DNA of 64,000 bases from a virus (IMGVR_UViG_3300046689_000419); one strand, 5' to 3'; positions 2,521-62,986 are shown, counted from the first letter of the stretch. Numbers and translations: made by a program. Notes: generated by a model from the sequence alone, not told the origin.

Positions 2521-2563
2521 GCCCAGTAGCGGCGGATGAGACGATCTGAGCAGAGGAGGAACC

Positions 2564-2893: not shown

Positions 2894-2926
2894 TCCGGGC
2901 TTTATGAAGTTTAGGGTGGTTTAGGC

Positions 2927-4642: not shown

Positions 4643-5034
4643 TGAGCAACCCGATCCCGCCGTACACGATCACCACCCCCTTCGGGAAGCGGGGCTCGTG
4701 GGCGGCTGGCTACCACACCGGTGACGACTACTCCACCAAGGGCAAGCAAGGCGTCCCGGTGCGGGCAGCCAAGGCGGGCAAGGTGGTCGGGCTGGGTTCG
4801 TGGGGCTCGGCCTACGGCAAGCACATCGTGCTGCAGACCACCACGATCCGGCACGGCTACTGCCATCTGTCCCGGATCCGGGTCAGCGTCGGGCAGAACG
4901 TGAAGAAGGGGCAGGTCATCGGCTACTCCGGGAACACCGGGAACAGCACCGGCCCGCACCTGCACTACGAGGAGCGGCGCTCCCCGTACAAGTACGCGAA
5001 CCACCGCAAGCCGGTCTACAACCGGGAGGCCTGA
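4642..5034 (+). CDS. Peptidase M23 family endolysin domain protein
   Basis: 'GYHTGDDYS...GNTGNSTGPHLHYE' matches the M23/LytM HxxxD...HxH zinc-peptidase signature; ATGA overlaps. Confidence 0.8.
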   Translation: MSNPIPPYTITTPFGKRGSWAAGYHTGDDYSTKGKQGVPVRAAKAGKVVGLGSWGSAYGKHIVLQTTTIRHGYCHLSRIRVSVGQNVKKGQVIGYSGNTGNSTGPHLHYEERRSPYKYANHRKPVYNREA

Positions 5035-5564
5035 TGCCCGTCTCGCAGAACGGCTACGAGGTCCTGGACAAGGACACCTCGGGCCCCTGGCCGCATCTGC
5101 GGGAGTGGACCATCCCCGGGGTGAAGCGGCGGATCCTGCTCCGGGACGGCTCGGCGGGCTTCCTGCTGATCCACCTGGCGCTGTGGTTCGACCAGGTGCT
5201 CGAGGACATCGACCAGGGCGTGGACGACTGGGGTTGGTCGCCGCGCAAGATCAGTGGGTCCAGCAGCTGGTCCAATCATGCCTCGGGCACCGCGATGGAC
5301 CTCAACGCCACCAAGCACCCGCAGGGCCAGTCCCCGTCCCGCTCGTTCAGCACCCAGAACATCACCGCGATCCACACCCGGCTGGCCCTGTACAAGAGCT
5401 GCCTCAAGTGGGGCGGGGACTACCGGACCACCAAGGACTCGATGCACTGGGAGATCGACCGGGGCAGCGCGCTGGTGGTCAAGATGGCCCAGTCCCTGGT
5501 GGACAGCCCGCGCGGCAAGGCCGTGCTCTCGGCCAACCCGGGCGCTCGGGAGATCATCCTCTAA
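5034..5564 (+). CDS. Peptidase M15 (LAS-type, VanY-like) cell-wall hydrolase
   Basis: 'SNHASGTAMDL' (SxHxxGxAxD) and 'DSMHWEI' motifs of M15 carboxypeptidases. Confidence 0.7.
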   Translation: MPVSQNGYEVLDKDTSGPWPHLREWTIPGVKRRILLRDGSAGFLLIHLALWFDQVLEDIDQGVDDWGWSPRKISGSSSWSNHASGTAMDLNATKHPQGQSPSRSFSTQNITAIHTRLALYKSCLKWGGDYRTTKDSMHWEIDRGSALVVKMAQSLVDSPRGKAVLSANPGAREIIL

Positions 5565-5573
5565 GGAGGCACC

Positions 5574-5807
5574 ATGCTCGAGACCAAGGTGTCGGTGGGA
5601 GCCGGCGCTGCCGGGATCACCGGCCTGGTGATGTGGGCGCTGGGTGAGTTCGTGTTCACCGGCGGAAACGTGCCGAACGAGGTGGTCACCTTCGTGGCCT
5701 GGCTGGTGCCGGCGCTGGTCGGTCTGGCCGCGGGCTACCTGGCTCCGCATACCCCGCGGCCGGATCTGCCGGTGGCCACACCTCCGGCTCCACCGGTTGT
5801 GCAGTGA
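5574..5807 (+). CDS. Holin (2 TM helices)
   Basis: 77 aa directly after the lysins, two hydrophobic helices and a Pro-rich C-terminus; RBS GGAGG. Confidence 0.6.
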   Translation: MLETKVSVGAGAAGITGLVMWALGEFVFTGGNVPNEVVTFVAWLVPALVGLAAGYLAPHTPRPDLPVATPPAPPVVQ

Positions 5808-28300: not shown

Positions 28301-31145
28301 CTCGCCGCAGATGCGCAAGTCGCTGCAGTTCCAGAACGACATCGCGCTGGCCTATGACGCCACCAACTCTGTCTTCGAGAAGATGCGCAAGACGGGGATG
28401 TCCTACCTGGACATCGTGAAGTCCGCCGAGAAGACCCAGGCGCAGATCGGGGTGGAGGGCGGCCCGGAGTACTCCCGCGCCGCGGCGCTGTCCCAGAAGG
28501 CCGAGTACGCCATCCAGATGCAGGCCCCGCAGATGGGCCGGATCGGTGCCGTGCAGTCCCAACTGGCGCTCACCCAGGCGGTGCTGGCCACCAAGCCGAA
28601 GACCGACACCGACGCCGCCGAGCGGGAGGCGCAGAAGCAGGCCGCCGCCTCGGCGATCGCCGACCAGGACCAGTACTTCCGGTCGATGATCCTGGCCCAG
28701 CGGGCCTACGAGCGGAGCCGGGTCCGGGCCCAGGAGGACTTCAGCCTGCAGCGCCAGTACCAGGAGTACGACTACAACATGTCTCGGACCCGGGCCGAGG
28801 AGAACTTCAACCGGATGCGGGCCCGGGCGATCGCGGACTATCACCGCAGCGTGACCAGGGCCTGGTCGGACTTCAACCTGCAGCGCAAGCGCCAGGAGCA
28901 GGACTACCAGCACCAGATCGAGGTGACTGCCCAGCAGCGGGCGATCTCGATGAACCTCTACCAGCGTCCGGAGACCCAGCGCACCTCGAGCGCCACCTGG
29001 CTGCTGTCGAACACCAGCAAGATCCTCTCCAACCTGCGCACCCAGAAGCAGCACCTCAACGAGCTGCGCAAGCTGGGCTTCTCCGACGCGGTGATCCAGC
29101 AGCTGCAGCTCACCGACCCGAACAACGCCCAGGAGCTGGCCCGGTTCGTCGCCGAGGTGCGCACCGACCGGACGATGGTGGGCAGGTTCAACCGGGTGGC
29201 CGGCCAGCTGTCCAGGGCGTCCCGAGCGCTGGTCACCGACTCCTCCAGCCTGGACTTCAAGGAGATGCAGCGCAGCTTCCTGCAGGGCCGGGACCGCGGG
29301 ATGGCGGACATGAACCGGTCGATGGACCGCCAGCACGCGGACTTCTGGCGCGGCCTGGGCCAGCAGCGCACCGACTTCAACATCATGATGGACCAGCAGG
29401 CCCAGGACTACGAGAACCAGAACAACCGCCAGCTCAAGCAGTACCAGACCTCGATGCACCGGTCCGCGCAGGACATGGCGCACATGGCCGATGAGGTCAC
29501 CGGGTCGATCACCGACGTGCTGGTCACCGCGCACGAGGAACTGACCGGCAGCGCCAAGAAGCAGGCCGGGCTGGCCCTGAAGTCCTTCCAGGACCTGCGC
29601 AAGTCCACCAAGCCCGAGGCCGTCGCGCTGATGCGCGAGCTCAGTCAGATCTTCGGCTTCGAGTACACCAACCCGCTGAAGGGCCACGGTCCCGCCCCGA
29701 TCCCGAGCGCCTCGAACGCGCACAGCGGGCGCACCGCAGGCGGGGTGAGCCGGTTCGACGCCGCGCACCCAGGGATGGCCCAAGGTGGCGTGGTGCCGGG
29801 CTGGAGCCCGGGCCGAGACGACAAGATGGTGCCGGTCTCCGGTGGCGAGGCAGTGATGCGCCCGGAGTGGGCGCGGCGGGTCGGCAAAGTCGCCATCGAC
29901 GCGATGAACCACGCCGCCGCGCATGGCGGGTACGCCAAGGGTGGCATCGTCTGGCCGCTGCCCTCCTCGAACTGGTCCACCTACCCGGGCCACGACGGCA
30001 TCGACCTGAACGCGCCGAACGACCTGGGCAAGCCGTTCTACGCCGCGGCACCCGGACGGATCTCCTACACCGGCTGGGGGCACGGCTACGGCGACGCGAT
30101 CTTCGAGACCGGGCCGTACGGCACCCTGGTCTACGGGCACGGCTCGAAGGTGGCGGTGCACGCCGGTCAGCGGGTCACCGCCGGCCAGTACATCGGCAAC
30201 GTGGGCAGCACCGGGCACTCCACCGGCCCGCACCTGCACATCGGCTTCCCGGGTGGCACCTCGGGGGAGATCCTGTCCTTCCTGCACGGGGCCGGACACA
30301 CCGGCTACGGGGCCGCCGCACCGCTCGGCGGGCTGATCGACCCGCTGGCGCTGACCGGGGTGCTCAAGGACCGCTACCCGCAGGCGGAGAAGGCCGCCTA
30401 CAACATGGACGGGGTGCACCCGCTGAACCCGGGGATGATCTCGGCGATCATCAACCGGCTGGGTCGGCGGGTGGCCGCCAAGTACGCCCGGCGCGCTGCG
30501 CCCGGTGGGGTGAACGTGGTGAACCTCGGCAACGAGCCGGCCAGCAACCTGACCAACGAGGGCATCGTGCACGTCGGCGCGAACCGGCTGGGCTGGGGCG
30601 ACCAGTGGCCAAGCCTGCGCCAGCTGGTGATGCACGAGTCCGGGTTCAATAACCTGGCCCAGAACCCGTCCAGCACGGCGTTCGGGATGTTCCAGTTCCT
30701 GAACTCGACCTGGGCCGGGGTGCACGGGCACAAGACCGCGGACCCCTGGAAGCAGACCCAGTACGGCCTGCAGTACATCAAGGACCGGTACGGCAACCCG
30801 GCGCACGCCTGGGACATGTGGCAGTCCCGGTCCCCGCACTGGTACGCCGACGGTGCGGTGTTCAACAGCCCCCGGCAGATCGGCGTCGGCGAGGGCGGCC
30901 CGGAGGCGGTGATCCCGCTGAACCAGAAGGGTGGGGAGTTCCTGGCCCGCTCGATCGGGCTGGACAGCGCGCCGATGGCCGGCGGCTCGGTGAGCGTGGC
31001 GAACTACCGGATCGACCGGTCCACCAACTTCACCGGCCCGATCACCGTGCAGGCCAACGACCCGAACGAGCTGCTGGCCAAGCTGCAGGCCCGTCAGCGA
31101 GTCCGCGCGCTGACCAAGCCGGCCCTGTCAGGATCAGCAGCATGA
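25362..31145 (+). CDS. Tape measure protein with embedded M23 peptidase and lytic transglycosylase domains
   Basis: 1927 aa, Ala/Gln-rich helical repeats; 'HGYGDAIFE...GSTGHSTGPHLHIGF' (M23) and 'MHESGFNNLAQNPSSTAFGMFQFL' (transglycosylase) motifs. Confidence 0.9.
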   Translation: MTSQPVEANVVLTADNSGYDQAMAASSQATTTLMSSVDALTAKIGKLTKTAGKSLIGIAAGDVAMITGATAAWSSYEKQMERLKSQAAVLGRSTDQQNKLMKDYSNTVKGLRSEFGTTTTEAAKLAETLSKVTNVRQSRDLGELSKVFIQMSKATGESSEGLASSLTNLEKIMGTPVNAQNSRKYADTFTHLAAQTNVSAQGLMDFTATLAPVAKSLGMNTKQVAGFATAFTQAGQDTGAASLMFTKVSRDMLRSLQSGSPELATYANIVGTTTENFKKLAKSDASEAVIRVFEALSRNTKTASADIERLGLDGPRTIRAIAGLTNQPGGIRAAAGLVNDPSATGSVERGYKATLSGLSNQFDELREDLKQTAEAFATILGPAMEGFLAGLEKAASIMQSVVQGPIGKFLQVVMGLVAPLAGGAGALLLFAGALVKVAGAFLLLKNSMTRGLVEGFQGKAGIIRSPEGVYMARGGGTLGKTGANLVRGTDPNLPREEQSSWVQRGLYNIGQFGGSGLSAFRSGGAVPEHWYEAREALSSKIPWTQQYARPDAPRSALSAVSRGAGALIENFVTPTFDQMRHAGPSQRRTWAAQEAPWVRAGDAMEMGAGRVKLIPGLAAAMGRVGMADTRLQAQREETTRVHQDPLMDEQSRQARLTELRGMREETMQRKNAALAQETAIRQEIAQRGESARVTAEANRETKTFGQAMRGLGGAVGGSLLTGGKDVARLAWRSGMVGQAGAMGAAVAGGAMGSNMLMMGGTGAMIGSMIPGVGTALGGAVGATAGLAMDAAKANNDVTDSIKELNQQATDAGKSGSGLAALAEATDQSKKKFQDYNKSMTALRQPGLSPLQSITTGYGQAKNFVEGLLGDSDVEEQAKKLNVTADKARNVADAFRDLAKAGGVKLTGSATAQRQQLDEFMASRGLPALGQANIELPDLIAARAKGGPQYQDMLDKAITPGKATGMWDRMRTTQVGAAMLDSPQMRKSLQFQNDIALAYDATNSVFEKMRKTGMSYLDIVKSAEKTQAQIGVEGGPEYSRAAALSQKAEYAIQMQAPQMGRIGAVQSQLALTQAVLATKPKTDTDAAEREAQKQAAASAIADQDQYFRSMILAQRAYERSRVRAQEDFSLQRQYQEYDYNMSRTRAEENFNRMRARAIADYHRSVTRAWSDFNLQRKRQEQDYQHQIEVTAQQRAISMNLYQRPETQRTSSATWLLSNTSKILSNLRTQKQHLNELRKLGFSDAVIQQLQLTDPNNAQELARFVAEVRTDRTMVGRFNRVAGQLSRASRALVTDSSSLDFKEMQRSFLQGRDRGMADMNRSMDRQHADFWRGLGQQRTDFNIMMDQQAQDYENQNNRQLKQYQTSMHRSAQDMAHMADEVTGSITDVLVTAHEELTGSAKKQAGLALKSFQDLRKSTKPEAVALMRELSQIFGFEYTNPLKGHGPAPIPSASNAHSGRTAGGVSRFDAAHPGMAQGGVVPGWSPGRDDKMVPVSGGEAVMRPEWARRVGKVAIDAMNHAAAHGGYAKGGIVWPLPSSNWSTYPGHDGIDLNAPNDLGKPFYAAAPGRISYTGWGHGYGDAIFETGPYGTLVYGHGSKVAVHAGQRVTAGQYIGNVGSTGHSTGPHLHIGFPGGTSGEILSFLHGAGHTGYGAAAPLGGLIDPLALTGVLKDRYPQAEKAAYNMDGVHPLNPGMISAIINRLGRRVAAKYARRAAPGGVNVVNLGNEPASNLTNEGIVHVGANRLGWGDQWPSLRQLVMHESGFNNLAQNPSSTAFGMFQFLNSTWAGVHGHKTADPWKQTQYGLQYIKDRYGNPAHAWDMWQSRSPHWYADGAVFNSPRQIGVGEGGPEAVIPLNQKGGEFLARSIGLDSAPMAGGSVSVANYRIDRSTNFTGPITVQANDPNELLAKLQARQRVRALTKPALSGSAA

Positions 31146-31621
31146 GCACCCGGACCAGACCGTTCGTCAGTCAGCCGAAGCCCGGCCTGGACTACCTGGC
31201 GGTGGAGATCTCCTACGGCAGCAGGTGGGTGAACCTGAACGACGGGGAGACCTACAAGATCTCCGCGGACGCGACCCGGGAGACCACCACCAAGTCCTGG
31301 CGCAAGACGGTCTCGGACTCCCCGGTGCTGGGCGGCAACTACCTGGTGCACGCGGTGCCGGACATGGTGACCGAGACGATCGGGGTCTGGGTCTACGGCC
31401 AGGACCAGGCCGAGGTGGCCGACAACCTGTTCGGCCTGGAGACGCTCTTCGAGCAGTACGACTACCGGATCCGGTGGACCACCGATGACTACCGGGAGTA
31501 CTGGCGCTGCCAGCTCGCCGAGGCCTCGATGAGCCGGGGCCAGGTCTGGACGCACAGCCGGATGGCCGCCGCGCACTTCGCGGTGCCGCGCTACCCGGAC
31601 GTGACCCGGGAGCGGATCTGA
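31142..31621 (+). CDS. Distal tail protein (Dit-like)
   Basis: ATGA overlap with the tape-measure stop; 159 aa in the Dit position. Confidence 0.5.
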   Translation: MSTRTRPFVSQPKPGLDYLAVEISYGSRWVNLNDGETYKISADATRETTTKSWRKTVSDSPVLGGNYLVHAVPDMVTETIGVWVYGQDQAEVADNLFGLETLFEQYDYRIRWTTDDYREYWRCQLAEASMSRGQVWTHSRMAAAHFAVPRYPDVTRERI

Positions 31622-32079
31622 TGGCCGGCCGGTTGACCATCTGGGGTGCCGGCGAGGTGCTGACCGCGTTCTTCGGCAACAGCGAGGGCGGCCGACCGGC
31701 CCCCGGCTCGTTCTACCTGGCCCTGGTCCGGACCATCGCGCCCACCCCGTACATGTCCGGGGCGGAGATCGATGAGCCGGCCGCCGCCGACTACGCCCGG
31801 GTGCAGATCGAGAACGACACCTTCAACTGGGCCAACGCCTCGGCCCCGCAGCAGATCTCCAACCTGCTCACCGCCAGCTTCGCGACCGCGATCACCGACT
31901 GGGGCGAGTGCCGGTACTGGGCGCTGTGCAACGCCCCGGTGGACGGCTTCAACTACCTGGTCGGCGAGCTGGAGACCCCGCTACTGGTCCAGACCGGGGA
32001 CACCATTCAGGTGGCCGAGGGCGACCTGGGCGTCTCGCTGGGCCCGTTCTTCTCCGCCGACGAGGAGGACGACGCCTGA
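31621..32079 (+). CDS. Minor tail protein
   Basis: ATGA-coupled; 152 aa. Confidence 0.5.
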   Translation: MAGRLTIWGAGEVLTAFFGNSEGGRPAPGSFYLALVRTIAPTPYMSGAEIDEPAAADYARVQIENDTFNWANASAPQQISNLLTASFATAITDWGECRYWALCNAPVDGFNYLVGELETPLLVQTGDTIQVAEGDLGVSLGPFFSADEEDDA

Positions 32080-33062
32080 TGGTGGTCAAGCAGATGAAGC
32101 CCGGCTCCACCGCGATCACCGCCCGGGCGATCACCAAGGCCGGGGTGGTGCCGGCACAGATCCGGGTGCTGCCCGGTGGGCTGTATCCGCTGCACTCGGC
32201 GGCCTTCGAGATGGACGAGTACCGGATCATGGCCGGCTGGCCGGTGCCGGTGCCCGCCTACGACATCCGCACCGACACCATGATGACCGCGGACGGCACG
32301 GTGCTCGCGGACCGGGACCGGCCCACCTCGCTGACCACCGGGGCCACCTTCCGCTGGGTCGCCGACGACAGCTACTACGACCCGACCGCGCTGGCCTGGG
32401 CCCCGATCCAGGGCGAGGTCTCGCCGTGGCTGGCGATGCCGGGCAGCGACCCGAGTCTGGTCACCGACTACGAGTACCGGGTCGGCGACGAGCGGTTCAC
32501 CGAGATGACCTGCCTGAACTTCGACTCGGACACCGCCGACTACCTGAGCAACGACCTGACCCTGATGATGGGCGGCTCGAACGGCTACACGGTGATCATG
32601 GTGGTCAGCCCGAACTCGGTCTACGGCAACAATGTGGACGTGCCAAGCAACGGGCTGTGGGGCCCGATGACCGCCATCGGCTCGCCGCCGGGCTGGTTCA
32701 GCGTGAAGATCGCCGGCAACTACCTGTGGTTGAGCACCGAGGACGCCACCGACCAGCGCGGGGTCTCGATCGGGGTCGGCCAGCGCACTACCGCGCCGAT
32801 GTTCCTGGCCCTGGTCCTGGGCCGCCCTGTGGCGTCCCTGTACGCCGCCTCCGGGCCTTCCAGCATGCTGACCAGGCAGATCCCCACCGGAGCGGACTCG
32901 AGGCCGCTGAGGGCCGATTTCTGGCTCGGCCGCACTCCGCTCTCCAACGCCACCGCGGACATGGCGCTGTTCGAGCTGGGCATCTACGGGGACATGCTCT
33001 CGGCCACCCAGGTGGCCAACGAGTTCGCGCTGCTCTCCAGCGCCTACGGCGGGGACACCTGA
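32079..33062 (+). CDS. Minor tail protein
   Basis: ATGA-coupled; 327 aa. Confidence 0.5.
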   Translation: MVVKQMKPGSTAITARAITKAGVVPAQIRVLPGGLYPLHSAAFEMDEYRIMAGWPVPVPAYDIRTDTMMTADGTVLADRDRPTSLTTGATFRWVADDSYYDPTALAWAPIQGEVSPWLAMPGSDPSLVTDYEYRVGDERFTEMTCLNFDSDTADYLSNDLTLMMGGSNGYTVIMVVSPNSVYGNNVDVPSNGLWGPMTAIGSPPGWFSVKIAGNYLWLSTEDATDQRGVSIGVGQRTTAPMFLALVLGRPVASLYAASGPSSMLTRQIPTGADSRPLRADFWLGRTPLSNATADMALFELGIYGDMLSATQVANEFALLSSAYGGDT

Positions 33063-35329
33063 TGGCCTCGCTGTCCGCCTACGCCTCCGAGCAGGAGCCG
33101 CTGGGCTACTTCCGGATCTTCGCCACCCCGCCCGGTGGCTACCGCCGGGAGATCACCATCGTGCGGGGTGCGCCGATCAAGCTGGGCACGGTGACCACCC
33201 AGGACCCGTTCACCGAGGGCACCGCGCAGATCGCACTGCCCCAGGTCACCGTCTTCGACCACCTCGGTGAGGGCGACCTGGACTGGCTGGTGGCCGAGGC
33301 GGACATCGACATCGTGTTCCAGCCCACCGGGGCCTACGACTTCGACTGGCGCTGGGAGGGCTACATCGCCTCCTTCTCGCTGTCCCTGACCGGCAGCGAG
33401 TCCAGCGTGAGCATCGACTGCAAGGGGGCCTTCTTCGGGCTGGACGACTTCCTGGCCATCCCATCCTTCCCGCGCCGGCCGATCCCCTACGAGATCCTGA
33501 TCGCCCGGGCCTTCGACCAGGACCTGCACCCGGCCCGGCTGGGCAACTTCCGGATGGTGTTCCCGTCCTGGTGGTCGATGCGGGTCCCGGAGTTCAACGA
33601 CCCGACCTACCTGAGCGCGCTCAAGCCGTACGGGGTAAGCACCGGCCAGCTCTGGACCGGGTTCACCTCGCGGTCCACCGGGTCCTGGGAGCCGGTGCTG
33701 TCCGGGCACGTGGTGACCATGTTGCAGTCCATGTACGCCAGCGGTGGGGCCCAGTGGAGCATCCGGAACCGCGGCCAGCGCCGCGGCGAGCTGTACCTGC
33801 GGACTATCCCGGACAGCAACGACGACTCGATCATCGAGATCTACCTGGGCGCGCCCGGGGTCGGCTTCGAGGGCACCCGGGACTACACCCAGCGGGCCGG
33901 GGTGATCTACGGCCAGGGCGCGGACGAGGCCGGGATCACCTACAACGGGATGGAGACCACCCCGGACGGCCGGCAGACCTACTTCAAGCCGTTCGCCTAC
34001 TCGGCCCGGCAGTGGCCGCGCCGGAAGAACCCGATGTACGACAAGCGGGTCAAGCCCAAGGAGACTCTGATCTCCTTCCAGCAGGGTGTGGACGAGATCA
34101 GCGCGATGAAGATCGCCCAGGCCAACTACCAGCGGCTGGCCGAGCCGGGCACCACCGGCAGCGTCACCCTGCTCACCGACCCGCGGTTCTCGGACGGCTC
34201 GCTGTGCCCGCGGATGATGATCAAGGCCGGGACGACCATTCGGCTGAACGGGCTGAACGGGGTCAAGGAGGGGGTGCTGGCGCACGTCACCTCCACCTCG
34301 GTGGACTTCCAGGGGCTGAGCACCACGCTGAGCTACGACACCAAGTACCGCGACCAGCTGACCGTGGAGGAGGTCAAGGCCCGGACCCGGGACTCCCTGG
34401 ACCCGGTGCGCTGGCTGCAGGTGAACAAGTACTCGAACACCATCCAGGACCTGATCATCCCGTGGTCCTACAAGCACGGCTCCGGGATCATCCCGACCCC
34501 GGCCAAGGAGTTCTTCCAGGAAGTGCTGCCCTCCACCGCGCAGTTCCCCTACGAGGAGTGGACCCGCAAGCACCCGCCGAAGAACGCCGACTCGGCCCCC
34601 TGGTACATCCGGATCGGGCCGACCAACGTCAACGACTCGAACAAGAACTGGTCCGGGGTGATCCGGGACGGGAAGATGACGATGGCCATCCCGATCCGGA
34701 TGGGCCAGGCCGGGACGATCCGGCTCACCCAGCTCGCCGCCTACGACCGGGACGGCAACGTGCTGCCGGTGAAGTTCCACTTCTCGCTCTACTACGGCAA
34801 CGGGGTGGCCGCGGATGGGATGCCGAAGTTCCCGAACCCGATGCCCGGGGAGGCCGGCTACAACCCGACCGACCCGGACAAGGCCCCGCCGCCGTGGCTG
34901 AAGGCCCGCAACGTGGCCGGGGTGGTGATCCCCACGCACTACAAGGCCTACCAGTCCAACCCGTTCTACAAGGGGGCCTGGGAGAACGTGATGGAGGACG
35001 GCCGGGCGTTCCCGTGGAGCCCGGACGCCAACATCCCCACCCAGGGGGCCGAACTGGTGGTCGGCTGGGGCAACTACTACGAGCCGGCCGGCTACTCCCC
35101 GGGCCGGGCCAGCAAGGGAGCCGCCCGGACCGGGCTGCTCGAGGACGCCACTACCTGGGGCTGGGACGTGGCCGGCAAGCAGAACATCGACTTCCAGAAC
35201 CCGAGCAACAACGTGAACGAGGAGTACGTCGGGATGCTGTTCGTGCAGATCTTCTGCGACGACCAGGACGACCAGCCGGTGTTCTTCATGGGCCGGCTGC
35301 TGCGCAGCGACCCCGGGCAGACCAACTGA
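33062..35329 (+). CDS. Minor tail protein (Tal / baseplate hub-like)
   Basis: 755 aa, ATGA-coupled, the largest protein after the tape measure. Confidence 0.55.
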   Translation: MASLSAYASEQEPLGYFRIFATPPGGYRREITIVRGAPIKLGTVTTQDPFTEGTAQIALPQVTVFDHLGEGDLDWLVAEADIDIVFQPTGAYDFDWRWEGYIASFSLSLTGSESSVSIDCKGAFFGLDDFLAIPSFPRRPIPYEILIARAFDQDLHPARLGNFRMVFPSWWSMRVPEFNDPTYLSALKPYGVSTGQLWTGFTSRSTGSWEPVLSGHVVTMLQSMYASGGAQWSIRNRGQRRGELYLRTIPDSNDDSIIEIYLGAPGVGFEGTRDYTQRAGVIYGQGADEAGITYNGMETTPDGRQTYFKPFAYSARQWPRRKNPMYDKRVKPKETLISFQQGVDEISAMKIAQANYQRLAEPGTTGSVTLLTDPRFSDGSLCPRMMIKAGTTIRLNGLNGVKEGVLAHVTSTSVDFQGLSTTLSYDTKYRDQLTVEEVKARTRDSLDPVRWLQVNKYSNTIQDLIIPWSYKHGSGIIPTPAKEFFQEVLPSTAQFPYEEWTRKHPPKNADSAPWYIRIGPTNVNDSNKNWSGVIRDGKMTMAIPIRMGQAGTIRLTQLAAYDRDGNVLPVKFHFSLYYGNGVAADGMPKFPNPMPGEAGYNPTDPDKAPPPWLKARNVAGVVIPTHYKAYQSNPFYKGAWENVMEDGRAFPWSPDANIPTQGAELVVGWGNYYEPAGYSPGRASKGAARTGLLEDATTWGWDVAGKQNIDFQNPSNNVNEEYVGMLFVQIFCDDQDDQPVFFMGRLLRSDPGQTN

Positions 35330-35339
35330 AGGAGGAGCC

Positions 35340-35702
35340 GTGGACGGCACCATCACCGACGGCCAGGTGCACCTGTGGCTGCAGGACATCGCCGACTCCG
35401 GCTGGGTCAGCCTGCACTTCGACACCCCGGCGCTGGGCGGGATCGACAAGGCGGAGATCGCCGGCGGCGGCTACCAGCGGTTCAAGATGGCCTGGTCGAA
35501 CCCGGCCAACCGGGCGATCTGGTCGATGGTCGATGCCCGGTTCACCGGGCTGGTGCAGACCAAGGTCACCTACTTCGGGATCTGGAACACCAAGAACCTG
35601 GGCCGGCTGATGGCCTACACCGAGCTGGCCTCCCCGGTGGCGATCCTGAACGGCAAGGGCTTCGTGATCCCGGCCGGGCAGATCGCGGTCAGCATGGGCT
35701 AG
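35340..35702 (+). CDS. Hypothetical tail-associated protein
   Basis: GTG start with RBS AAGGAGGAG; 120 aa; last gene of the rightward operon. Confidence 0.45.
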   Translation: MDGTITDGQVHLWLQDIADSGWVSLHFDTPALGGIDKAEIAGGGYQRFKMAWSNPANRAIWSMVDARFTGLVQTKVTYFGIWNTKNLGRLMAYTELASPVAILNGKGFVIPAGQIAVSMG

Positions 35703-56930: not shown

Positions 56931-57586
56931 CAGGACTCCTGTGGGCCGTGCAGGGCATGGGCGAGTACCTGGAGCGGACTGAACTCACCGCCCTCGATGA
57001 AGGTGATCACCGACTCCTCGTCGTCCTCGTCGGGGAAGGCGTCGCGGTAGTGCTGGCCGTACTTGATCAGGCAGGCCAGGTCCCGGCCCTCCTCGGTGCC
57101 CTCGGCTGGAGTGGGCAGCTCGGAGACCAGGCCGTTCAAGATGGCGTAGGCCCCGAAGTTGCTGCCCAGGTCCTCGTCGGCGTAGAGCACCTGGAGCATC
57201 TGGTCCGGGAACCTCTCGGAGAGCGCGCTGATCACCGGGTACGGGTGTGCCCAGGCGGTGTCGAAGCGGACCACGGTGTCGTGCTCGGAGACCTCGGTCT
57301 CGTAGGCGTTCCACTTGGTGCCCCAGTTCTGGATCGACCAGTCGTACCAGTCGATCGCTCCCTCGGGGTACGGGATCGGGTCACCCTTCATCCCGGCCGG
57401 GTCGTCCTCGGTCGGGGCCCAGTAGACCTTCTTCATTTCGCCGTCGATCTTGGCGTGCCCGATGCTGCCGGTGATCACGTCATCGGGCATCGGGATGATG
57501 CGGTTAAAGTCCACCCCTGCCTCGGTGAGCAAGGCATCGATCGCCTCGCGCGGTCCGCGCAGGATGGTGGTTATGTGGTTGGGCAT
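56930..57586 (-). CDS. Hypothetical protein (motifs 'IIPMPDD' and 'NWGTKWNAYE', reminiscent of DUF1281-type phage proteins)
   Basis: RBS GGAAGGA 7 nt before the ATG (MPNHITT). Confidence 0.45.
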   Translation of the reverse strand: MPNHITTILRGPREAIDALLTEAGVDFNRIIPMPDDVITGSIGHAKIDGEMKKVYWAPTEDDPAGMKGDPIPYPEGAIDWYDWSIQNWGTKWNAYETEVSEHDTVVRFDTAWAHPYPVISALSERFPDQMLQVLYADEDLGSNFGAYAILNGLVSELPTPAEGTEEGRDLACLIKYGQHYRDAFPDEDDEESVITFIEGGEFSPLQVLAHALHGPQES

Positions 57587-57622
57587 TACAAGTCCTTCCA
57601 TGGGTTGTCCGGACATGGAAAA

Positions 57623-57664
57623 GCCCGGTGCCGAAGAGAGTAAGTACTCCCTCCGACACCGGGC
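57623..57664 (-). terminator. Weak terminator-like hairpin followed by TTTTCCATGTCCGG
   Basis: 8-bp stem gcccggtg/caccgggc with a long loop; same downstream motif as the 40.7 and 47.1 kb hairpins. Confidence 0.3.
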
Positions 57665-57918
57665 ATGGCCCCTGGATTCTGGCGTGCAGAACTCAGGTGC
57701 TGCAAACACACTATCACAACGTGGTCTATACGCACAAGGGCCAGAACGAGATTCGTCCTGGCCTGTTCTGGGGTGTCAGCGCGGCACTGTGTCTACGCGA
57801 CGGGCCGACTGATTGACCCCGGAGGCGAGGTGTGAGCCCCGCCAGAGACCGCCGGCCCAAGCGGGCCCTGCGATCTCATGCAGACAACATTAGCCTATAC
57901 ACCACAGCAGGTCAAGCC

Positions 57919-58629
57919 CTAGATCGAGGCTGCTCGATGGGCCGCGATCCGGGCTGCTGAGAGCGCCGAGCCGTAGTAGGCCACCTCATCAACGATCCCG
58001 GTGAACGGACCGGCTCCGGTGGAGTTGAAGCCGATCTGGAGCCGGCCCACCCCGTTGCTCTTCGGCACCCCGGACTGGGCCACCGAGATGTCCTGGGTGC
58101 CGTTCACGTAGAGCCGGGCGTTCGCGCCGTCGTAGCTGATCGCCAGGTGGTAGGTGGTGTTGGCCACCAGCCGGGCCACGCTGTTCAGAAAGAACGGCCC
58201 GGCGGTGTTGGTCCAGAAGATGAACTGCAGCGCCCCGGAGGACTGCAGCTGGAGCTGCCAGTACCGGTTGCCGGTGTCCGGGTCCCGGTCGATCGGGTTC
58301 TGGGTGCCGGTGATCGCGGTCGCCTTGATCAGCACCTCGGCGGTGAACCCGGCCGGGGTGTTCATCCAGGCGGCGTACGGCACCCACGGCTTGCCGCCCA
58401 GGGACTGCGCCCCGTTGGTGTCCCCGGCCAGCAAGCCGGAGACCCGGGTGGACCCGCCGAAGTCCGCGTAGGCACCGTCGTGGCCGAATCCAGAGGAGTC
58501 CGGCAGCACCAGCACGTTGGAGGGCTGGTCCATCCGCCAGTAGCCCAGCGGGGCATCGGCCATCACCTCGGTGGCATACCGGGAGGTGGCCAGGCCCACA
58601 TAGGAGTCCGCGACCACCCCGATGCTCAC
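57919..58629 (-). CDS. LamG/concanavalin-like domain fibre protein
   Basis: GTG start with GTGA overlap; C-terminal 'YHLAISYDGANARLYVNG...VAYYGSALSAARI' is a LamG-type jelly-roll signature. Confidence 0.5.
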   Translation of the reverse strand: MSIGVVADSYVGLATSRYATEVMADAPLGYWRMDQPSNVLVLPDSSGFGHDGAYADFGGSTRVSGLLAGDTNGAQSLGGKPWVPYAAWMNTPAGFTAEVLIKATAITGTQNPIDRDPDTGNRYWQLQLQSSGALQFIFWTNTAGPFFLNSVARLVANTTYHLAISYDGANARLYVNGTQDISVAQSGVPKSNGVGRLQIGFNSTGAGPFTGIVDEVAYYGSALSAARIAAHRAASI

Positions 58630-59357
58630 GTGGAGAGCCGTCCGTAGGCCACCCAGACATCGGTGGCGGTCTTCCGCAGCCCGTACGAGCCGTACTGAGC
58701 GGCGATCTTCAGACCCGGCGAGGCGTTGATGGTCACCCCGGCTCCCGGAGTCAGGGTGACCTGCCCAGCCCCCAGCTGATTGCCCTCGACCACGGTACCG
58801 ACCGGGAAGGCCACCGCGGAGTTCGGTGGCACGGTCAGCGTGGACGCGCCGGCGTTGGTCATGTCCACGATGTTGTTGGCATCGCCAATGGCCAGGGTGT
58901 AGCTGGTGCCGGTCTGGCTGTTCACGGTGGCCGGGACTCGAGCCCCGGTGTGGGTGTGGTTGCCGGCCGCAGCCTGCGTGGCGCTGGTACCCAGGGTCCG
59001 CATCGAGGCGGTCCCGGCGGTGCCGTCCTTGTTGGCCGCGGCCACCTTGGCATCGGTGACCACCAGTGCCGCGATAGCCGGGTTCGGGTAGCTCCCGGAC
59101 AGATCCCCACCGGCAGGGCCGGTGGACGGCCCAGCAGGCCCGGTAGGCCCGGCAGGACCGGTTGCTCCGGCGGTGCCAGGAGCGCCGGCAGGTCCGGTAG
59201 GTCCAGCGGGCCCTGCGGGCCCAGCCGGACCAGTCGCCCCAGCCGTACTCGATCCACCCGGGGCGGCGGTCAGGATCGAGGTGTCGTACTTGGTGACATC
59301 GATGACCAGGGTCCGGATGTCCACGGTGATGCTGGTGAGCAGCTCGGTGACGCTCAT
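58626..59357 (-). CDS. Collagen-like repeat protein (putative tail fibre)
   Basis: Gly-X-Y triplets 'GPAGPAGPAGPTGPAGAPGTAGATGPAGPTGPAGP' plus a beta-rich C-terminal domain. Confidence 0.6.
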   Translation of the reverse strand: MSVTELLTSITVDIRTLVIDVTKYDTSILTAAPGGSSTAGATGPAGPAGPAGPTGPAGAPGTAGATGPAGPTGPAGPSTGPAGGDLSGSYPNPAIAALVVTDAKVAAANKDGTAGTASMRTLGTSATQAAAGNHTHTGARVPATVNSQTGTSYTLAIGDANNIVDMTNAGASTLTVPPNSAVAFPVGTVVEGNQLGAGQVTLTPGAGVTINASPGLKIAAQYGSYGLRKTATDVWVAYGRLST

Positions 59358-59716
59358 CTGGTGACATCCAGCTCGGCGGTGAAGTCTCCGGCCATCACGG
59401 TCTGCGGGTCACCGGCACCATCATGGATCTCGAGGTCCCAGACCCCCTTCTGGATCACCTCGGTGCCCAGCCAGGTCCGGACATCATCGCCGGGCCAGCG
59501 GACCATCAGCACTCCGTTGCTGGCATCGGTGATGGTGATCACCGCATCCAGCTCGGTGACCTCGGTCTTGCTGGTCCGGGCCTGGGCGGTGATGGTCTTC
59601 CCGGTCAGGTTCACCGGTCTGCCGGCGGCCAGCAGGGTGACCCGAACCTCGTTCAGGTCTCCGGCACGAATCCCGGTGATGTCCACCTGGGCTGGTCCCA
59701 ACGGCACTGTCACCAT
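59354..59716 (-). CDS. Hypothetical beta-rich protein (first gene of fibre operon)
   Basis: RBS AGGAGG 7 nt upstream of ATG; 120 aa. Confidence 0.5.
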   Translation of the reverse strand: MVTVPLGPAQVDITGIRAGDLNEVRVTLLAAGRPVNLTGKTITAQARTSKTEVTELDAVITITDASNGVLMVRWPGDDVRTWLGTEVIQKGVWDLEIHDGAGDPQTVMAGDFTAELDVTR

Positions 59717-59784
59717 GGTCTGACCTCCTGGTCCCAGGCTAACGGTGAGCGCTCGTCGTTACGTTGAGGACAAGGAGGGGGCAT
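59717..59784. promoter_or_regulatory. Divergent promoter region between the leftward fibre operon and the rightward membrane/collagen genes
   Basis: 68-bp spacer flanked by two strong RBSs facing outward. Confidence 0.3.
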
Positions 59785-60042
59785 ATGACCAGGATTCGGG
59801 ATCGGTCCACTGGAGATCTGCTGGTGATCATGGTGGCCGGGACGGTGTGCACGGTGATTCTGGCCACCACTGTCGCGTTGATCGTCTCGCAGGTCCTCAA
59901 CCAGAAGGTGTCCTCGGGTGCGGCCTCGGCAGTCGGGGACATCGTGAACACCATGATCGGCCTGTTGGCCGGCTTCCTGGCCGGCCGCTCGGAGACTACC
60001 TTGACCACTACCAAGCGGGGGGAGAAGGAGTCTCCACCGTGA
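59785..60042 (+). CDS. Small 2-TM membrane protein (holin-like topology)
   Basis: RBS AAGGAGGGGG; '[24 protein letters not shown]' and '[15 protein letters not shown]'. Confidence 0.5.
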
Positions 60043-60725
60043 GCTGGGCAGTGATCCGGGCGGTGATCGGTCTGGTGGTCGCCGGAGGGCTGATGACCTA
60101 CGCCTTCGCGAACGCGATCTGGGGTCCGCTGCTGGTCAACGCCAGCGAGCAACCAGCAGCAAAGCCAGCTGTTGTCACATCAACTTCAGGTACTGCCACA
60201 TCAACTCCGTCTACTGCCAGTACCCCGACCAGTAGCCCCAGTGCAGTCAGTCCCCTCAGTACGCCGTCACCGGTGACCGGACTGACACCACTGACTCCAC
60301 TGACCGGACCTGCTGGACCGGCTGGACAGGATGGGGTCAACGGAACAGATGGAACGGATGGGGGAAATGGCAGTGCAGGACAACCTGGACCCCCGGGACC
60401 TGGAGGCGCTGCAGGTGCTCAGGGAGAAGCTGGTCCGGCTGGAAGTACCGGACGTACCGGACCACCAGGACCACCTGGACCTCGCGGAGCACAGGGGTTC
60501 CCCGGACCAAGAGGCCCAGCCGGGAAAGACGGACAAGCTGGACCAGACGGTGCGACCGGTCCAGTAGGACCGAGAGGACCTCAGGGACCTCAGGGACCGC
60601 AAGGTCCACCGGGCCCTGCGGGCCCACCAGGACCAGACTGTCCTCCGGGCTACTCCGCTGAACCGCTGACCTTGAACGCTCCGCATGGTCAGGTACACCT
60701 GTTCGTCTGCCAGAGAACTTCTTGA
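60039..60725 (+). CDS. Membrane-anchored collagen-like protein
   Basis: GTG start with GTGA overlap; N-terminal TM/signal helix, Ser/Thr/Pro linker, then ~40 Gly-X-Y triplets and a Cys-containing C-terminus. Confidence 0.55.
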
Positions 60726-61068
60726 CCAAATCGGGAAAGGGTTCGACCCTGCCATGGCAAGCCTACGAATCTTCGACCGATTGTGGCCGTACCTCTCTCT
60801 GGGGGGAACGCCTCTGATCAACTTGCACCAGACATCCCCGGATAGTCGTATCGCGCGGCCGGCGGCCGGGGGGAGAGTGCCAAGCATCCTCAGAGACCGG
60901 GTTCATCACCTTTCGGTAAGGCGACGCCGATTCGTGGCCTGCATGGGCTACGATGGCATCGCGACGTGGACAATCGCACGCTAGCCCCTGGAAGCGCGGC
61001 TGGCAAGGAGGGCCCCGACGCTGGCAAGTCGGGGCCCTCAGTCCGTCTAGACATGACACCGTGGACCC

Positions 61069-61215
61069 ATGCGGGGGAAGCTCACGGGCCGGACCGCCGG
61101 AGAGCTCGTCATCCTGGTGGTCTGTGTGCTGATCCTGCTGGCCACCCTGCTGATCGCGACCGCGCTGATCGGCATGGCGGTGGGCCTGATCGGTCAGGTG
61201 GTCCAGCCCGATTGA
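61069..61215 (+). CDS. Possible hydrophobic micro-protein (48 aa)
   Basis: ORF in the non-coding region; no convincing RBS. Confidence 0.15.
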   Translation: MRGKLTGRTAGELVILVVCVLILLATLLIATALIGMAVGLIGQVVQPD

Positions 61216-61267
61216 CCAGGTTTCCTGCACCCGTGCGTGTCGGCGCAGACCGGCGTAGGGTCCGGAG

Positions 61268-61597
61268 ATGCCCTCGGTCTGGGTCAGGGAGGACCCGAAG
61301 CTTCGCACCCGGTTCCACCGGACTCCGGACTGCCGGCAGCTGACGAAGAAGCCGTCCCGCGGCCAGCACCACGACCTGGTGCAGACCGATCTCGAGGTGG
61401 TGCACGTACGACCCTGCCGGACCTGCTACCCGGATGCTCCCTACCTGGAGATCCGCAAGCGGTACTGCCCGGTCTGCGACACCCGGCACGCCTGCGAGCA
61501 CAACGGCGGGGTGCTGATCACCGATCGGCGAGGAAGAGCGTTCTGGGTCTGGCCGGACACCAACCAGATGCCCTACTATCGAAAGCATTCCACCTAG
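61268..61597 (+). CDS. Cys/His-rich zinc-finger-like protein
   Basis: 109 aa; 'CRTC...CPVC...HACEH'. Confidence 0.4.
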   Translation: MPSVWVREDPKLRTRFHRTPDCRQLTKKPSRGQHHDLVQTDLEVVHVRPCRTCYPDAPYLEIRKRYCPVCDTRHACEHNGGVLITDRRGRAFWVWPDTNQMPYYRKHST

Positions 61598-61690
61598 CCC
61601 AGGCATTCCAAACTGGGTACATACATACAACTACACACTGCTTCCAGACCCTGAGCGGCGTGTGAAGGACGAGCACACGAGGAGCCCACC

Positions 61691-62986
61691 GTGCCAGCGG
61701 TATCCGCAGAAGCGCTGTTGATCTCAGCCCTGGTCAACACCGCGTCGGTCGGCAGTGAGGTCCCCTTCGGGATCTCCGCAGCCGACTTCGAGGGCTATGC
61801 CGACGAGTACAACTGGCTCGTCAACTACGTGGAGACCTACCACGAACAGCCCACCCGGGACATCTTCGCGATCAAGTTCCCCACCTTCGGGCACTCCGAG
61901 CACACCGAGGTCCGCTCGGCCGCGGACCTGGTGCACCTGGCCAGCAACAAGCGGCGGATCAACACGGCGATGAGCGACGCGGTGGACCTGATGCATCTGG
62001 GCGAGGTGAACGCGGCCTACACCCAGCTGGTGGAGGCCAAGCCCAAGCGGGCCCTGCTGCCACCCCGCCGGCTGCTCACCGACACCGCGCACCTGGACGA
62101 GTGGGACCACAAGCCGTACGCCGTGGAGCTCCCGTACGGCACCCTGCAGCGGTTCACCGGCGGGATTCAGGCCGGCAACCTGTGGTACGTGGCCGGACGG
62201 CCGGGACAGGGCAAGTCCGCGCACCTGACGGTGGCCAGCAAGCACGGCGTGCTGACCGGGAACCGGGTCCTCTTCTACTCCCTCGAGATGAGCGAGGCGG
62301 AAGTAAGGGCCCGGTTCCACGCATGTCTGGGCACCGAGATGGGCTACCCGTCGATCACCCTGAGCAACCTGCGCGACCGCAGCGTGGACCGGGCCCTCTA
62401 CCGCAGGTTCATCGGCGAGCTGGAGGAGCGGATGACCGCGACCGGCGGCTGCCTGGATGTGCACACCCCGGCGGACGGTCCGGTGTCTCCCTCGGTGGTG
62501 GCCAGCAGGTGCGGGGAGTACCAGCTGACGGTGATCGACTACGTGGGCCTGATGGCCCAGGACGGTGGCGGCCGGGCCATCGATGACTGGCGGGTGATGG
62601 CCTCGATCTCGAACTCCCTGAAGACCACCGCGCTGACCCAGCAGACCGGGCTGCTCTGCGCGGCTCAGATCAACCGGGAGGGGGAGACCGGCTCGACACC
62701 ACCGAAGGTGAAGAACCTGGCCCAGTCCGATGCCCTCGGGCAGGACGGGGACGTGGTGCTCACGATGCGCGCGAAGCCACACGGGGTGGCCACGCACTTC
62801 TCGATCGAGAAGAACCGGCATGGGCCGAGCGGCATCTACTTCCACACCACCTTCGACCCGAACACCGGCTCGTTCACCGAGATCTCCGGCGATGCCGCCG
62901 AGGACCTGGTGATCAACGCCGAGGTGCTGGCCGAGAACCCGATCCCGCCCAAGCTGCGGGTGATCAAGTCGAAGACCGACCTCTAG
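61691..62986 (+). CDS. DnaB-like replicative helicase (RecA-fold C-terminal domain)
   Basis: GTG start with RBS GAGGAG; Walker A 'GRPGQGKS' and 'LFYSLEMSEAEV' typical of DnaB. Confidence 0.7.
   Translation: MPAVSAEALLISALVNTASVGSEVPFGISAADFEGYADEYNWLVNYVETYHEQPTRDIFAIKFPTFGHSEHTEVRSAADLVHLASNKRRINTAMSDAVDLMHLGEVNAAYTQLVEAKPKRALLPPRRLLTDTAHLDEWDHKPYAVELPYGTLQRFTGGIQAGNLWYVAGRPGQGKSAHLTVASKHGVLTGNRVLFYSLEMSEAEVRARFHACLGTEMGYPSITLSNLRDRSVDRALYRRFIGELEERMTATGGCLDVHTPADGPVSPSVVASRCGEYQLTVIDYVGLMAQDGGGRAIDDWRVMASISNSLKTTALTQQTGLLCAAQINREGETGSTPPKVKNLAQSDALGQDGDVVLTMRAKPHGVATHFSIEKNRHGPSGIYFHTTFDPNTGSFTEISGDAAEDLVINAEVLAENPIPPKLRVIKSKTDL

Follow-up and report, generated by a model that had tools for sequence, protein, structure and literature searches.

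The 64,000-nucleotide (nt) sequence IMGVR_UViG_3300046689_000419 (hereafter the window, meaning this whole stretch) is a fragment of the genome of an uncultured tailed phage with about 66% GC. Here we describe a five-gene region, P1 to P5, located where the two divergent arms of this genome meet (Table 1). We propose that the leftward genes P1, P2 and P3 encode an accessory virion fibre and that the rightward genes P4 and P5 encode a lysis-type membrane pair, both units being of late type and directed at the host envelope, a combined reading towards which we lean with modest confidence. All five open reading frames (ORFs) recognised in a first-pass annotation of the window are present, and the other structural details that it described, namely the GTGA overlap between P2 and P3, the 68-bp divergent region and the distance of about 22 kb to the tail genes, were borne out; the final gene of the tail operon ends at 35702, 22.2 kb from P3. 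No paralogue of any of the five genes was found elsewhere in the window, and P1, P2, P4 and P5 are conserved in frame in related phages.

P1 resembles the fibre anchors of siphophages

An AlphaFold2 (AF2) model of P1 built from 37 homologues (predicted local distance difference test, pLDDT, 93.6) shows an immunoglobulin (Ig)-like beta-sandwich. Using Foldseek against the PDB, the best matches of this model were the T5 tail-tip chains 7qg9_L and 7qg9_J (140 residues; E = 1.3e-7, TM-score 0.70), followed by the DT57C baseplate chains 8hqz_T and 8hqz_Q (TM-score 0.73 for 8hqz_T), the NF5 baseplate, the N-domain of TP901-1 BppU (3uh8, E = 1.8e-4, and 4v96) and the baseplate of Mycobacteriophage Douge (8zdo_a). 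The best solved-structure matches of P1 are thus all tail-tip or baseplate fibre anchors of siphophages. At the sequence level, a P1 profile searched against the PDB sequences returned the "L-shaped tail fiber protein p132" with a marginal E value of 0.011, and P1 matches phrog_1084 in PHROGs (E = 3e-13). The P1 family comprises 1671 representative clusters, nearly all of them stand-alone proteins of about 120 amino acids (aa). In T5, the side fibre pb1 has its first ~50 residues woven into a collar of twelve p132 copies (PMC10038345). P1 likewise adjoins a fibre gene, P2, with which it shares an ATGA overlap (59354-59357), and the same pairing is seen in the related loci L011 and L016 and in Streptomyces phage Francob. 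Judging from the model, P1 is likely a fibre anchor or collar subunit of the T5 p132 (LtfC)/BppU N-terminal type.

P2 and P3 encode a probable collagen-like shaft and a lectin domain

The P2 protein starts with a conserved N-terminal region of about 35 aa that carries a TVDI motif, also common to the collagen genes that follow P1 in L011 and L016. This region is followed by the Gly-X-Y triplets, by an NHTHT motif, which we take to be of the HxH kind present in trimeric fibres, and by a C-terminal minor-tail-protein domain. The collagen stretch scores 20.4 bits with the Pfam Collagen model, under the cut-off of 27.2. The C-terminus matches the minor tail protein family phrog_8780 (E = 1.7e-20), and a tblastn search with this tip domain (window 58626-59086) returned 247 phage records annotated as minor tail protein, 223 of which are from Gordonia phages. 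Over 91 residues (152-242) P2 shares 55% identity with the C-terminus of gp38 of Gordonia phage Stultus (E = 2e-27). As a side observation, the predominance of Gordonia among these matches suggests that the host may be Gordonia or a related mycolic-acid bacterium.

P3 overlaps P2 by GTGA (58626-58629) and contains a Laminin_G_3 domain at residues 91-229 (E = 1.6e-25; 90.5 bits, cut-off 27.6). A P3 homologue is absent from the related loci, where other distal proteins occupy its place. P3 is therefore likely the subunit that binds at the distal end, with a predicted ability to bind sugars, and the part of the cassette that varies most.

The proposed fibre genes occupy a slot whose contents change

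The first-pass annotation had viewed the leftward operon as a second fibre-type locus, a view supported by the anchor fold of P1, the minor-tail C-terminus of P2 and the LamG domain of P3. Moreover, comparison with the relatives for cassette swapping gave a positive result, with three different cassettes, or none, found in one slot. The 125 bp located 3' of the P3 stop codon (57790-57915) can be aligned at nearly every base with the sequence 5' of P4 in L008, where this shared sequence runs directly into the P4 promoter region and ribosome-binding site (RBS), with no P1-P3 between. The slot holds 1.8 kb in the window (P1, P2 and P3); 2.6 kb in L016 (P1, a 127-aa collagen protein with a Phage_tail_C domain, a protein of ~512 aa and a 101-aa protein); and 3.6 kb in L011 (P1, a short collagen protein, a GP4 fiber-I gp80-like protein and a 753-aa protein). 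It is empty in L007, L008 and L015. Across these contents P1 and the N-terminal ~35 residues of the collagen protein, with the TVDI motif, are constant, and the distal parts differ, the pattern expected of an anchor with exchangeable tips. The left edge of the slot is marked by P_L, a sigma-70-like leftward element, and the right edge by the near-palindrome CTAACGGTGAGCGCTCGTCGTTAC. These comparisons support the idea that P1-P3 is an accessory fibre cassette, kept in a fixed slot and exchanged or lost among relatives. Modules of this kind are known, and the new features supported here are the anchor fold, the fixed slot and the swapping.

A different kind of exchange, in which the two collagen genes would act as recombination partners that vary host range, had also been suggested and was not supported. 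The collagen stretches of P2 and P5 share only a 43-nt run with 86% identity, of which 16 nt are exact. Moreover, the collagen copies are direct repeats on the plus strand with their genes on opposite strands, so that a crossover between them would delete P1 and P4 and would not swap a tip.

P5 is a collagen-like gene skipped by gene callers

P5 encodes a protein with a hydrophobic N-terminus (residues 1-33), a 55-aa linker rich in Ser, Thr and Pro (34-88), uninterrupted Gly-X-Y triplets (90-200) and a C-terminal CPPGY...LNAPHGQ...VC tail. The collagen repeat (Pfam PF01391, 61.6 bits, cut-off 27.2) and the Ser/Thr/Pro stretch were as previously noted, and the number of triplets, earlier put at about 40, is 37. 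The gene is preceded by an RBS (GAAGGAG, 8 nt upstream) and overlaps P4 by GTGA (60039-60042). In spite of these features, P5 is uncalled in six public contigs that are identical to the window over the sequence shared here, where an ORF of 66-72 aa in another frame was called instead, and the exact P5 sequence is absent from a collection of 5.8 billion proteins. The GC content at third codon positions (GC3) of the genome is ~0.9, and that of the P5 segments is 0.88 for the N-terminus, 0.45 for the Ser/Thr/Pro linker, 0.34 for the collagen repeat and 0.62 for the fourth segment; it is also low for the genome, at 0.54, in the collagen stretch of P2. Gene callers likely skip P5 because its GGA, CCT and CCA codons lower GC3, so that an out-of-phase frame looks more coding. 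Collagen-like genes in high-GC phages may be under-annotated in general.

In five distinct relatives an ORF with the P5 layout is found at the same position after P4, with 32-41% identity to P5. In the alignment of these proteins the changes in length are of whole triplets, and the CPxG[YF]...VC tail and its two Cys are invariant. This conservation of frame and layout indicates that P5 is a real gene. The P4-P5 pair is kept in 9 of 11 related loci (6 of 7 distinct relatives), seven of the nine also having the adjacent 109-aa gene and DnaB at the same spacing. The N-terminus of P5 could be a cleavable signal peptide (AFA followed by NA) instead of a stable anchor. A collagen protein that is exported or anchored in the membrane is unlikely to serve as a fibre in the virion of a tailed phage, and on this point the first-pass annotation is upheld.

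P4-like genes and the P5 family lie close to endolysin-type genes in other phages

The mean Kyte-Doolittle hydropathy of P4 is 2.43 in the first hydrophobic segment and ~1.56 (by hand arithmetic) in the second; its homologues were counted as having two transmembrane segments at a hydropathy threshold of 1.5. In its small size, two membrane segments and charged C-terminus P4 has the layout of a class II holin. There are 27 clusters of homologues of about 85 aa, none of them named by its source, and further P4-like proteins were found in L050 (E = 9e-22), L044 (5e-8), L075 (3e-6), L102 (4.8e-5), L035, L078, L108, L033 and L081. In four of these contigs (L044, L075, L078 and L081) a P4-like/P5-like pair lies directly beside an endolysin-type gene, a context that supports the holin-like character earlier attributed to P4. 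On the basis of gene context, P4 is most likely a class II holin-like candidate.

Among the 120 best database matches of P5, 20 combine an N-terminal hydrophobic segment, a collagen repeat and the tail C-P-x-G-[FY]-x7-N-x-P-G-G-Q-x5-C, and the tail of the window's P5 fits the C-terminal motif of this family. The family was surveyed by scanning IMG/VR with an exact IUPAC pattern for the tail, which gave 115 stretches, for which 80 loci were returned. True members are encoded in 63 of these loci. They amount to 59 distinct proteins, 93-309 aa long and with 8-51 Gly-X-Y triplets, and the GC content of their contigs ranges from 43 to 73%. Pfam, NCBIfam, PHROGs and PADLOC recognised only the collagen repeats, and no description of the P5 family was found in the literature on collagen-like proteins associated with holins, spanins or lysis cassettes. 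In many members the N-terminal tail is basic and the hydrophobic segment is flanked on its outer side by an additional pair of Cys, features that fit an N-in/C-out topology and an extracytoplasmic location; a few carry a lipobox-like LAGC or LTAC.

Family members nearly always follow tail genes, and in at least 30 of the 59 cases the start of the member lies no more than 40 nt from the end of a preceding small ORF with one or two hydrophobic segments. The small partners found in L029 and L031 are similar, at a sub-threshold E value of 1.2e-5, to XhlA of the PBSX lysis cassette. Among 101 larger neighbour proteins of the family, the commonest Pfam domain is Amidase_2 (8), and CHAP (3), PG_binding_1, LysM, M23, M15_4, SLT and NlpC/P60 also occur, ahead of the tail and terminase families; these are counts for which no background rate was computed. 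Several neighbourhoods contain recognisable lysis genes. In L021 the order is an Amidase_2 endolysin, a 92-aa protein, the family member and two small membrane proteins. L026 has a 94-aa protein, a collagen protein that has this layout but ends in another C-terminal tail (no CPxG), an Amidase_2 gene and an r1t-type holin. In L044 a minor-tail-like gene is followed by the P4-like and P5-like genes and by an M23 peptidase 36% identical to that of the window, and in L075 the pair precedes a 534-aa endolysin with an M23 domain 47% identical to the window's. In L078 and L081 an amidase lies just upstream of the pair. These contexts make it most likely that P5 is a membrane-anchored envelope partner of the holin-like P4, a partner that we take to be obligatory and exported.

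Two further loci are of interest. In L107 (140-869 of an IMG/VR contig of 60 kb) a P1-like gene (26% identity, E = 7e-8) starts 2 nt after the end of a P5-like gene, an order suggesting that both modules belong to the end-of-tail/lysis neighbourhood in other phages. In L028, an ENA forest-soil contig of 6996 bp, a family member is found in a tectivirus-like element, surrounded by genes for small membrane proteins, after a 66-aa protein with two hydrophobic segments and between a packaging-ATPase-like gene (identified by eye) and the gene for a PRD1-type (P3) major capsid protein; there the membrane anchor could put the family member into a tectivirus-like virion.

Table 1. Coordinates of the features described in the text, counted from the first letter of the window
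Feature	Position	Strand	Description
P3	57919-58629	-	236 aa, Laminin_G_3 (concanavalin-A-like lectin)
P2	58626-59357	-	243 aa, 13 uninterrupted Gly-X-Y triplets
P1	59354-59716	-	120 aa, all-beta in AF2 model
P4	59785-60042	+	85 aa, two hydrophobic segments, charged C-terminus KRGEKESPP
P5	60039-60725	+	228 aa, exported or membrane-anchored collagen-like protein
Alternative-frame ORF in public annotation	60331/60367-60567		
Divergent spacer	59717-59784		68 bp between P1 ATG (59716) and P4 ATG (59785)
RBS of P1	59724-59729	-	AGGAGG-type, in spacer
RBS of P4	59772-59778	+	AGGAGG-type, in spacer
Near-palindrome CTAACGGTGAGCGCTCGTCGTTAC	59739-59762		24 nt, inside divergent spacer
-10-like TACGTT for P4 (putative)	59760-59765		overlapped by CTAACGGTGAGCGCTCGTCGTTAC, mirrored toward P1
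P_L, putative sigma-70-like leftward promoter	57887-57915	-	-35 TTGACC 57910-57915, 17-nt spacer, -10 TAATGT 57887-57892
Hairpin, candidate terminator or attenuator	57623-57664	-	19 bp then UUUUCC, from terminator scan; 3' of P_L, just 5' of DUF1281_C gene
Perfect 12-bp GC-rich hairpin	61008-61039	+	no U-tract; in 343-bp non-coding stretch past P5
Structural genes	83 to 35702	+	large terminase 6104, portal 7632, tape measure 25362-31145
Lysis cassette, M23 peptidase	4642-5034		130 aa
Lysis cassette, endolysin, M15-like	5034-5564		176 aa, phrog_1512, E = 4.9e-25
Lysis cassette, two-segment membrane protein	5574-5807		77 aa
Tape-measure and tail-tip genes	25362-35702		
Small-gene leftward arm	59716 down to 36063	-	
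Replication arm	from 59785	+	DnaB 61691, primase 63138; DNA polymerase III alpha past window end

Proposed roles of the two modules

In the model that we favour, oligomers of P1 on the virion would hold the P2 protein by its conserved N-terminal ~35 residues. The trimeric stalk formed by P2 would be composed of a short collagen helix, a beta-rich region with the HxH motif and a Gordonia-type minor-tail tip domain, and P3, made by translational coupling, would be the distal sugar-binding subunit. Exchange or loss of the cassette would then alter the adsorption range of the phage. On the other arm, P5, made by coupling to P4, would be exported in an N-in/C-out orientation, and three of its collagen repeats would assemble into a rod of ~30 nm (an estimate at ~0.29 nm per residue), held on the flexible Ser/Thr/Pro linker and ending in a tip module bounded by two Cys. 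Projecting from the membrane into or through the wall, P5 would aid the holin/endolysin step, either by timing it or by breaking the outer envelope layers. A bolder version, which we regard as speculative and rather improbable, is that the P5 family represents a new class of lysis or envelope effectors, in which a membrane-anchored, holin-coupled collagen helix reaches through the thick actinobacterial wall, possibly to the mycomembrane, completes or times the disruption of the envelope there and does the job of a spanin by another structural principle; standard callers would systematically overlook its gene owing to the low GC3 of the collagen codons.

Evidence against the proposal and alternative explanations

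Several observations weigh against this proposal. For the fibre module, P1 misses the Pfam BppU_N threshold (13.8 bits, cut-off 23.1), the AF2 single-sequence model of the P2 C-terminal domain has a pLDDT of 34, and no sigma-70-like promoter is visible for P1-P3, a promoter-less look that would suit late, factor-dependent expression. For the membrane pair, P4 matched no family and no holin in Pfam, PHROGs or NCBIfam, and it lacks the endolysin adjacency of class II holins in this genome, the endolysins of which are encoded at 4642-5564, beside a two-segment membrane protein of their own and 55 kb off on the window map. The small partners in the P5 family fall into three or more unrelated types: some are P4-like, with two hydrophobic segments, some have a membrane segment at the N-terminus and then a coiled coil, and some, weakly XhlA-like, have a coiled coil and then a membrane segment at the C-terminus. 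The genes downstream of the collagen gene in L024, L027 and L030 were taken by eye for endolysins, were not supported by Pfam, PHROGs, PDB or BLAST searches and are not counted here. The six-fold range in rod length of the family argues against a fixed envelope-spanning ruler. Finally, P4-P5 is the first unit of the DnaB/primase/PolIII arm, and in the cassette-less relatives it stands back to back with a consensus sigma-70-type promoter. A match of the 105-aa protein of L024 to Rz-like spanins (E = 6.7e-4), which most likely reflects shared coiled-coil composition, was also set aside.

The place of P4-P5 at the head of this arm and the back-to-back promoter would suit early expression and a role in exclusion. 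Superinfection exclusion or adhesion had been put forward for P5 in the first-pass annotation, and in its most developed form this explanation makes P4-P5 an early superinfection-exclusion or surface-masking module, in which P4 acts in the membrane and the P5 rod blocks receptors or DNA entry, or keeps progeny off debris. Besides its place at the head of the replication arm and the back-to-back promoter, the distance of the pair from the phage's own endolysins and the export of P5, with Cys pairs outside the membrane, speak for it. So do size and layout, which recall those of T4 Imm and Sp; Imm has two membrane segments and Sp is exported. Nothing specific to exclusion or adhesion was found, with no PADLOC match for P1-P5 and two family members and no PHROG match to defence or exclusion. 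No lysogeny genes were found in a scan covering part of the proteins. Elsewhere the family is embedded by gene overlaps in late lysis cassettes, with holin-like genes on one side and endolysins on the other, which would be odd for an early function, and the family context points to lysis. We thus keep the exclusion module as an alternative of low probability.

The second alternative concerns the fibre and is, in our judgement, similarly doubtful. P1-P3 could be a head or neck fibre, of the decoration or whisker type, with P1 seated on the capsid or the connector. In Francob the equivalent trio lies between the major capsid and head-to-tail adaptor genes. In addition, P1-like domains occur in a very few fusions, none of them to fibres, whose partner segment is weakly gp6-connector-like (E = 0.006), weak Foldseek matches link P1 to the Bas63 connector chains, and P2 has a weak PHROG match to head fibres (E = 2.5e-4). 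The connector match is, however, sub-threshold, the best structures matched by P1 are all tail-tip or baseplate anchors (T5, DT57C, NF5, TP901-1 and Douge), and the P2 C-terminus matches minor tail proteins encoded within tail operons.

It is very improbable that P5 is not a gene at all and that its collagen frame is a by-product of repetitive GGN-CCN DNA, with the 66-78-aa ORF as the true product, as the choice of the callers on six contigs and the low GC3 (0.34-0.45) of the repeat and linker might suggest, since the collagen frame, hydrophobic N-terminus and C-terminal tail are kept at 32-41% identity with whole-triplet indels, the same architecture recurs in the 59 IMG/VR and 20 database proteins, an RBS and a GTGA overlap with P4 are in place, and the high GC3 of the alternative frame is the arithmetic result of reading GGA-CCN codons one base out of phase.

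Putative regulatory elements at the edges of the slot

P_L, a putative promoter, was found by comparing the relatives, in which the element reads TTGACA or TTGTGC, 17 nt, TAnnnT; the automatic consensus scan listed no promoter, the -10 of P_L matching at 3 of 6 positions. In L011 and L016 the element adjoins the cassette end, and in L007, L008 and L015, which have no cassette, it lies directly next to the P4 promoter region. In the divergent spacer, CTAACGGTGAGCGCTCGTCGTTAC occurs once in the window, compared with 0 expected occurrences, and is kept in the cassette-bearing relatives L011, L013, L016 and L020. A TACCGT/TACGTT element is found 5' of P4 in all relatives and would, from its position, serve as a promoter element for this gene. 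CTAACGGTGAGCGCTCGTCGTTAC could be an operator or an overlapping divergent promoter pair.

The minus strand between 57590 and 57925 folds more stably than shuffled sequences (z = -7.3), and its hairpin at 57623-57664 is a candidate terminator or attenuator that would also stop read-through from P1-P3. P_L followed by a strongly structured leader of ~290 nt (57587-57915) looks like an attenuator or antitermination site for the whole leftward arm. The CATACACGACAGG motif in the spacer of P_L has a second copy in relatives, just 5' of DnaB and on the coding strand (L007 ~9979, L013 ~2934, L016 ~9975), preceded by TTGCAC, 17 nt, TATGGT, and may be a shared regulator-binding site. Past P5, the hairpin at 61008-61039 may end the P4-P5 transcript, a suggestion made with low confidence; the fold of 60715-61075 has z = -2.3, and the hairpin is not in the terminator-scan list.

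Genome context

The relatives in IMG/VR have genomes of ~81 kb and DnaB proteins 72-80% identical to that of the window. Contigs L001-L006 correspond to the same phage as the window, identical contigs being present in several metagenomes, and are comparatively uninformative. Against 50,697 cultured phage records, megablast of 57000-62000 and 6000-30999 gave no nucleotide match; in tblastn searches of cultured phages, the large terminase subunit gave no match at 1e-10, and P4, P5 and the family member P0234 gave nothing useful. The Rfam scan returned sub-threshold chance matches only, and no tRNA genes were found. There was no integrase among the window proteins scanned, which were not all of the window's proteins, and no evidence of lysogeny was seen.

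The first-pass annotation had also placed fibre genes at 83-4072 in the canonical position. The position is wrong: these genes precede the lysis cassette (4642-5807) and the terminase and are distant from the genes for the tape measure and tail tip. As to their nature, 83-1423 is clearly fibre-like and the rest is not clearly so. The 446-aa protein encoded by 83-1423 has head-decoration and tail-fibre matches in PHROGs, two SRSDHTH motifs and an N-terminus typical of minor tail proteins; after it come genes for two membrane proteins (1761-2096 and 2089-2520) and for a 381-aa protein, making this a third fibre-type locus, before the lysis cassette. The cassette region as a whole (4107-5807) is directly upstream of the terminase and also encodes two extremely acidic proteins of 103 and 75 aa. 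No LysB-like esterase was found among the window proteins scanned.

Other features of the genome were seen in passing. The 1927-aa tape-measure protein has, near its C-terminus, an M23-peptidase-like HSTGPHLH and a transglycosylase-like AFGMFQFLNSTW, both recognised by eye. The leftward arm between 36063 and 57709, viewed via L001 and L002, contains at least six paralogous DUF6197 genes together with DUF4262, DUF1281_C and Band_7-like genes. Between P5 and DnaB (61069-61597) there are a 48-aa ORF that is near-wholly hydrophobic and a 109-aa Cys-rich protein with CxxC pairs. The latter is 62-75% identical in all relatives; at the position of the former the relatives have a 51-67-aa ORF, and the 48-aa protein gave no tblastn match in those loci.

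Implications

In the fibre cassette, host-range hardware takes the form of a plug-in unit, whose fixed slot lies between two putative promoters at a distance of 22 kb from the tail operon. It is useful for predicting or engineering the host range of uncultured actinophages, and it warns against seeking receptor-binding genes only past the tape-measure gene. The P4-P5 pair points to a widespread family of exported collagen-like proteins that gene callers skip in this phage. The coupling of this family to small membrane proteins and its proximity to endolysins make a role in lysis directly testable; if true, such a role could close a gap in the understanding of how lysis of thick-walled, high-GC hosts is completed by their phages.

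Comparison with known systems

A close parallel to P1-P2 is the p132 (LtfC)/pb1 system of T5. P1 has the same Ig-like fold as p132 (120 compared with 140 aa) and is likewise a small separate protein beside a fibre gene, and where the T5 collar grips the N-terminal ~50 residues of pb1, the N-terminal ~35 residues of P2 are conserved together with P1. In contrast with T5, the sequence similarity is marginal, no p140-like ring protein was identified here, and the fibre is collagen-like with a LamG tip and is encoded 22 kb from the tail operon. The BppU and BppL proteins of TP901-1 and Tuc2009 and the Douge baseplate protein use the same anchor fold, with an anchor that carries an exchangeable receptor-binding subunit. 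There, however, the anchor is the N-terminal domain of a longer protein of the tail operon, whereas P1 stands alone.

Gordonia phage Stultus offers a parallel for the tip: a small gene follows gp38 with a 4-nt overlap, and the last ~90 residues of P2 find their counterpart in the gp38 C-terminus. Nevertheless, gp38 lacks collagen, no P1-like neighbour was seen, gp39 is unrelated to P3, and in the Gordonia phages these genes are in the tail operon beside an endolysin gene. The same three-part set in the same order is found in gp28-gp29-gp30 of Francob, a 129-kb phage in which the three are annotated as hypothetical: gp28 matches P1 (E = 1.6e-12; E = 0.0027 against LtfC, under the cut-off), gp29 has Gly-X-Y stretches by eye and a sub-threshold Pfam Collagen match (E = 2.5e-5; 24.4 bits, cut-off 27.2), and gp30 carries Laminin_G_3 (E = 1.4e-10). 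Francob differs from the window in that its trio is flanked by the capsid and head-tail adaptor genes, and sequence homology is detectable for P1 alone.

With respect to P5, collagen-like adhesins of the LPXTG type (Scl1/Scl2, Lcl) were considered and rejected, the NCBIfam models giving 55, 43 and 42 bits where the cut-offs are 325, 400 and 500; P5 has no LPXTG motif and its anchor is N-terminal. The spanins (lambda Rz/Rz1, T1 gp11) share with the P5 homologues an N-terminal anchor, a long extracytoplasmic rod with Cys and a location in lysis cassettes. Their rod is a coiled coil, not collagen, and for P5 no embedded or adjacent lipoprotein gene was seen; P5 was not classed as a spanin. The pair as a whole can be compared with the holin-plus-partner systems of phages of Gram-positive bacteria and actinobacteria, such as PBSX XhlA/XhlB and Ms6 Gp4/Gp5. 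Unlike any known partner of these systems P5 has a collagen ectodomain, and unlike them the pair lies outside the lysis cassette here. As in XhlA/XhlB of PBSX, nevertheless, a two-segment membrane protein is coupled to a single-pass partner, and in the homologous contigs the two are found beside an endolysin.

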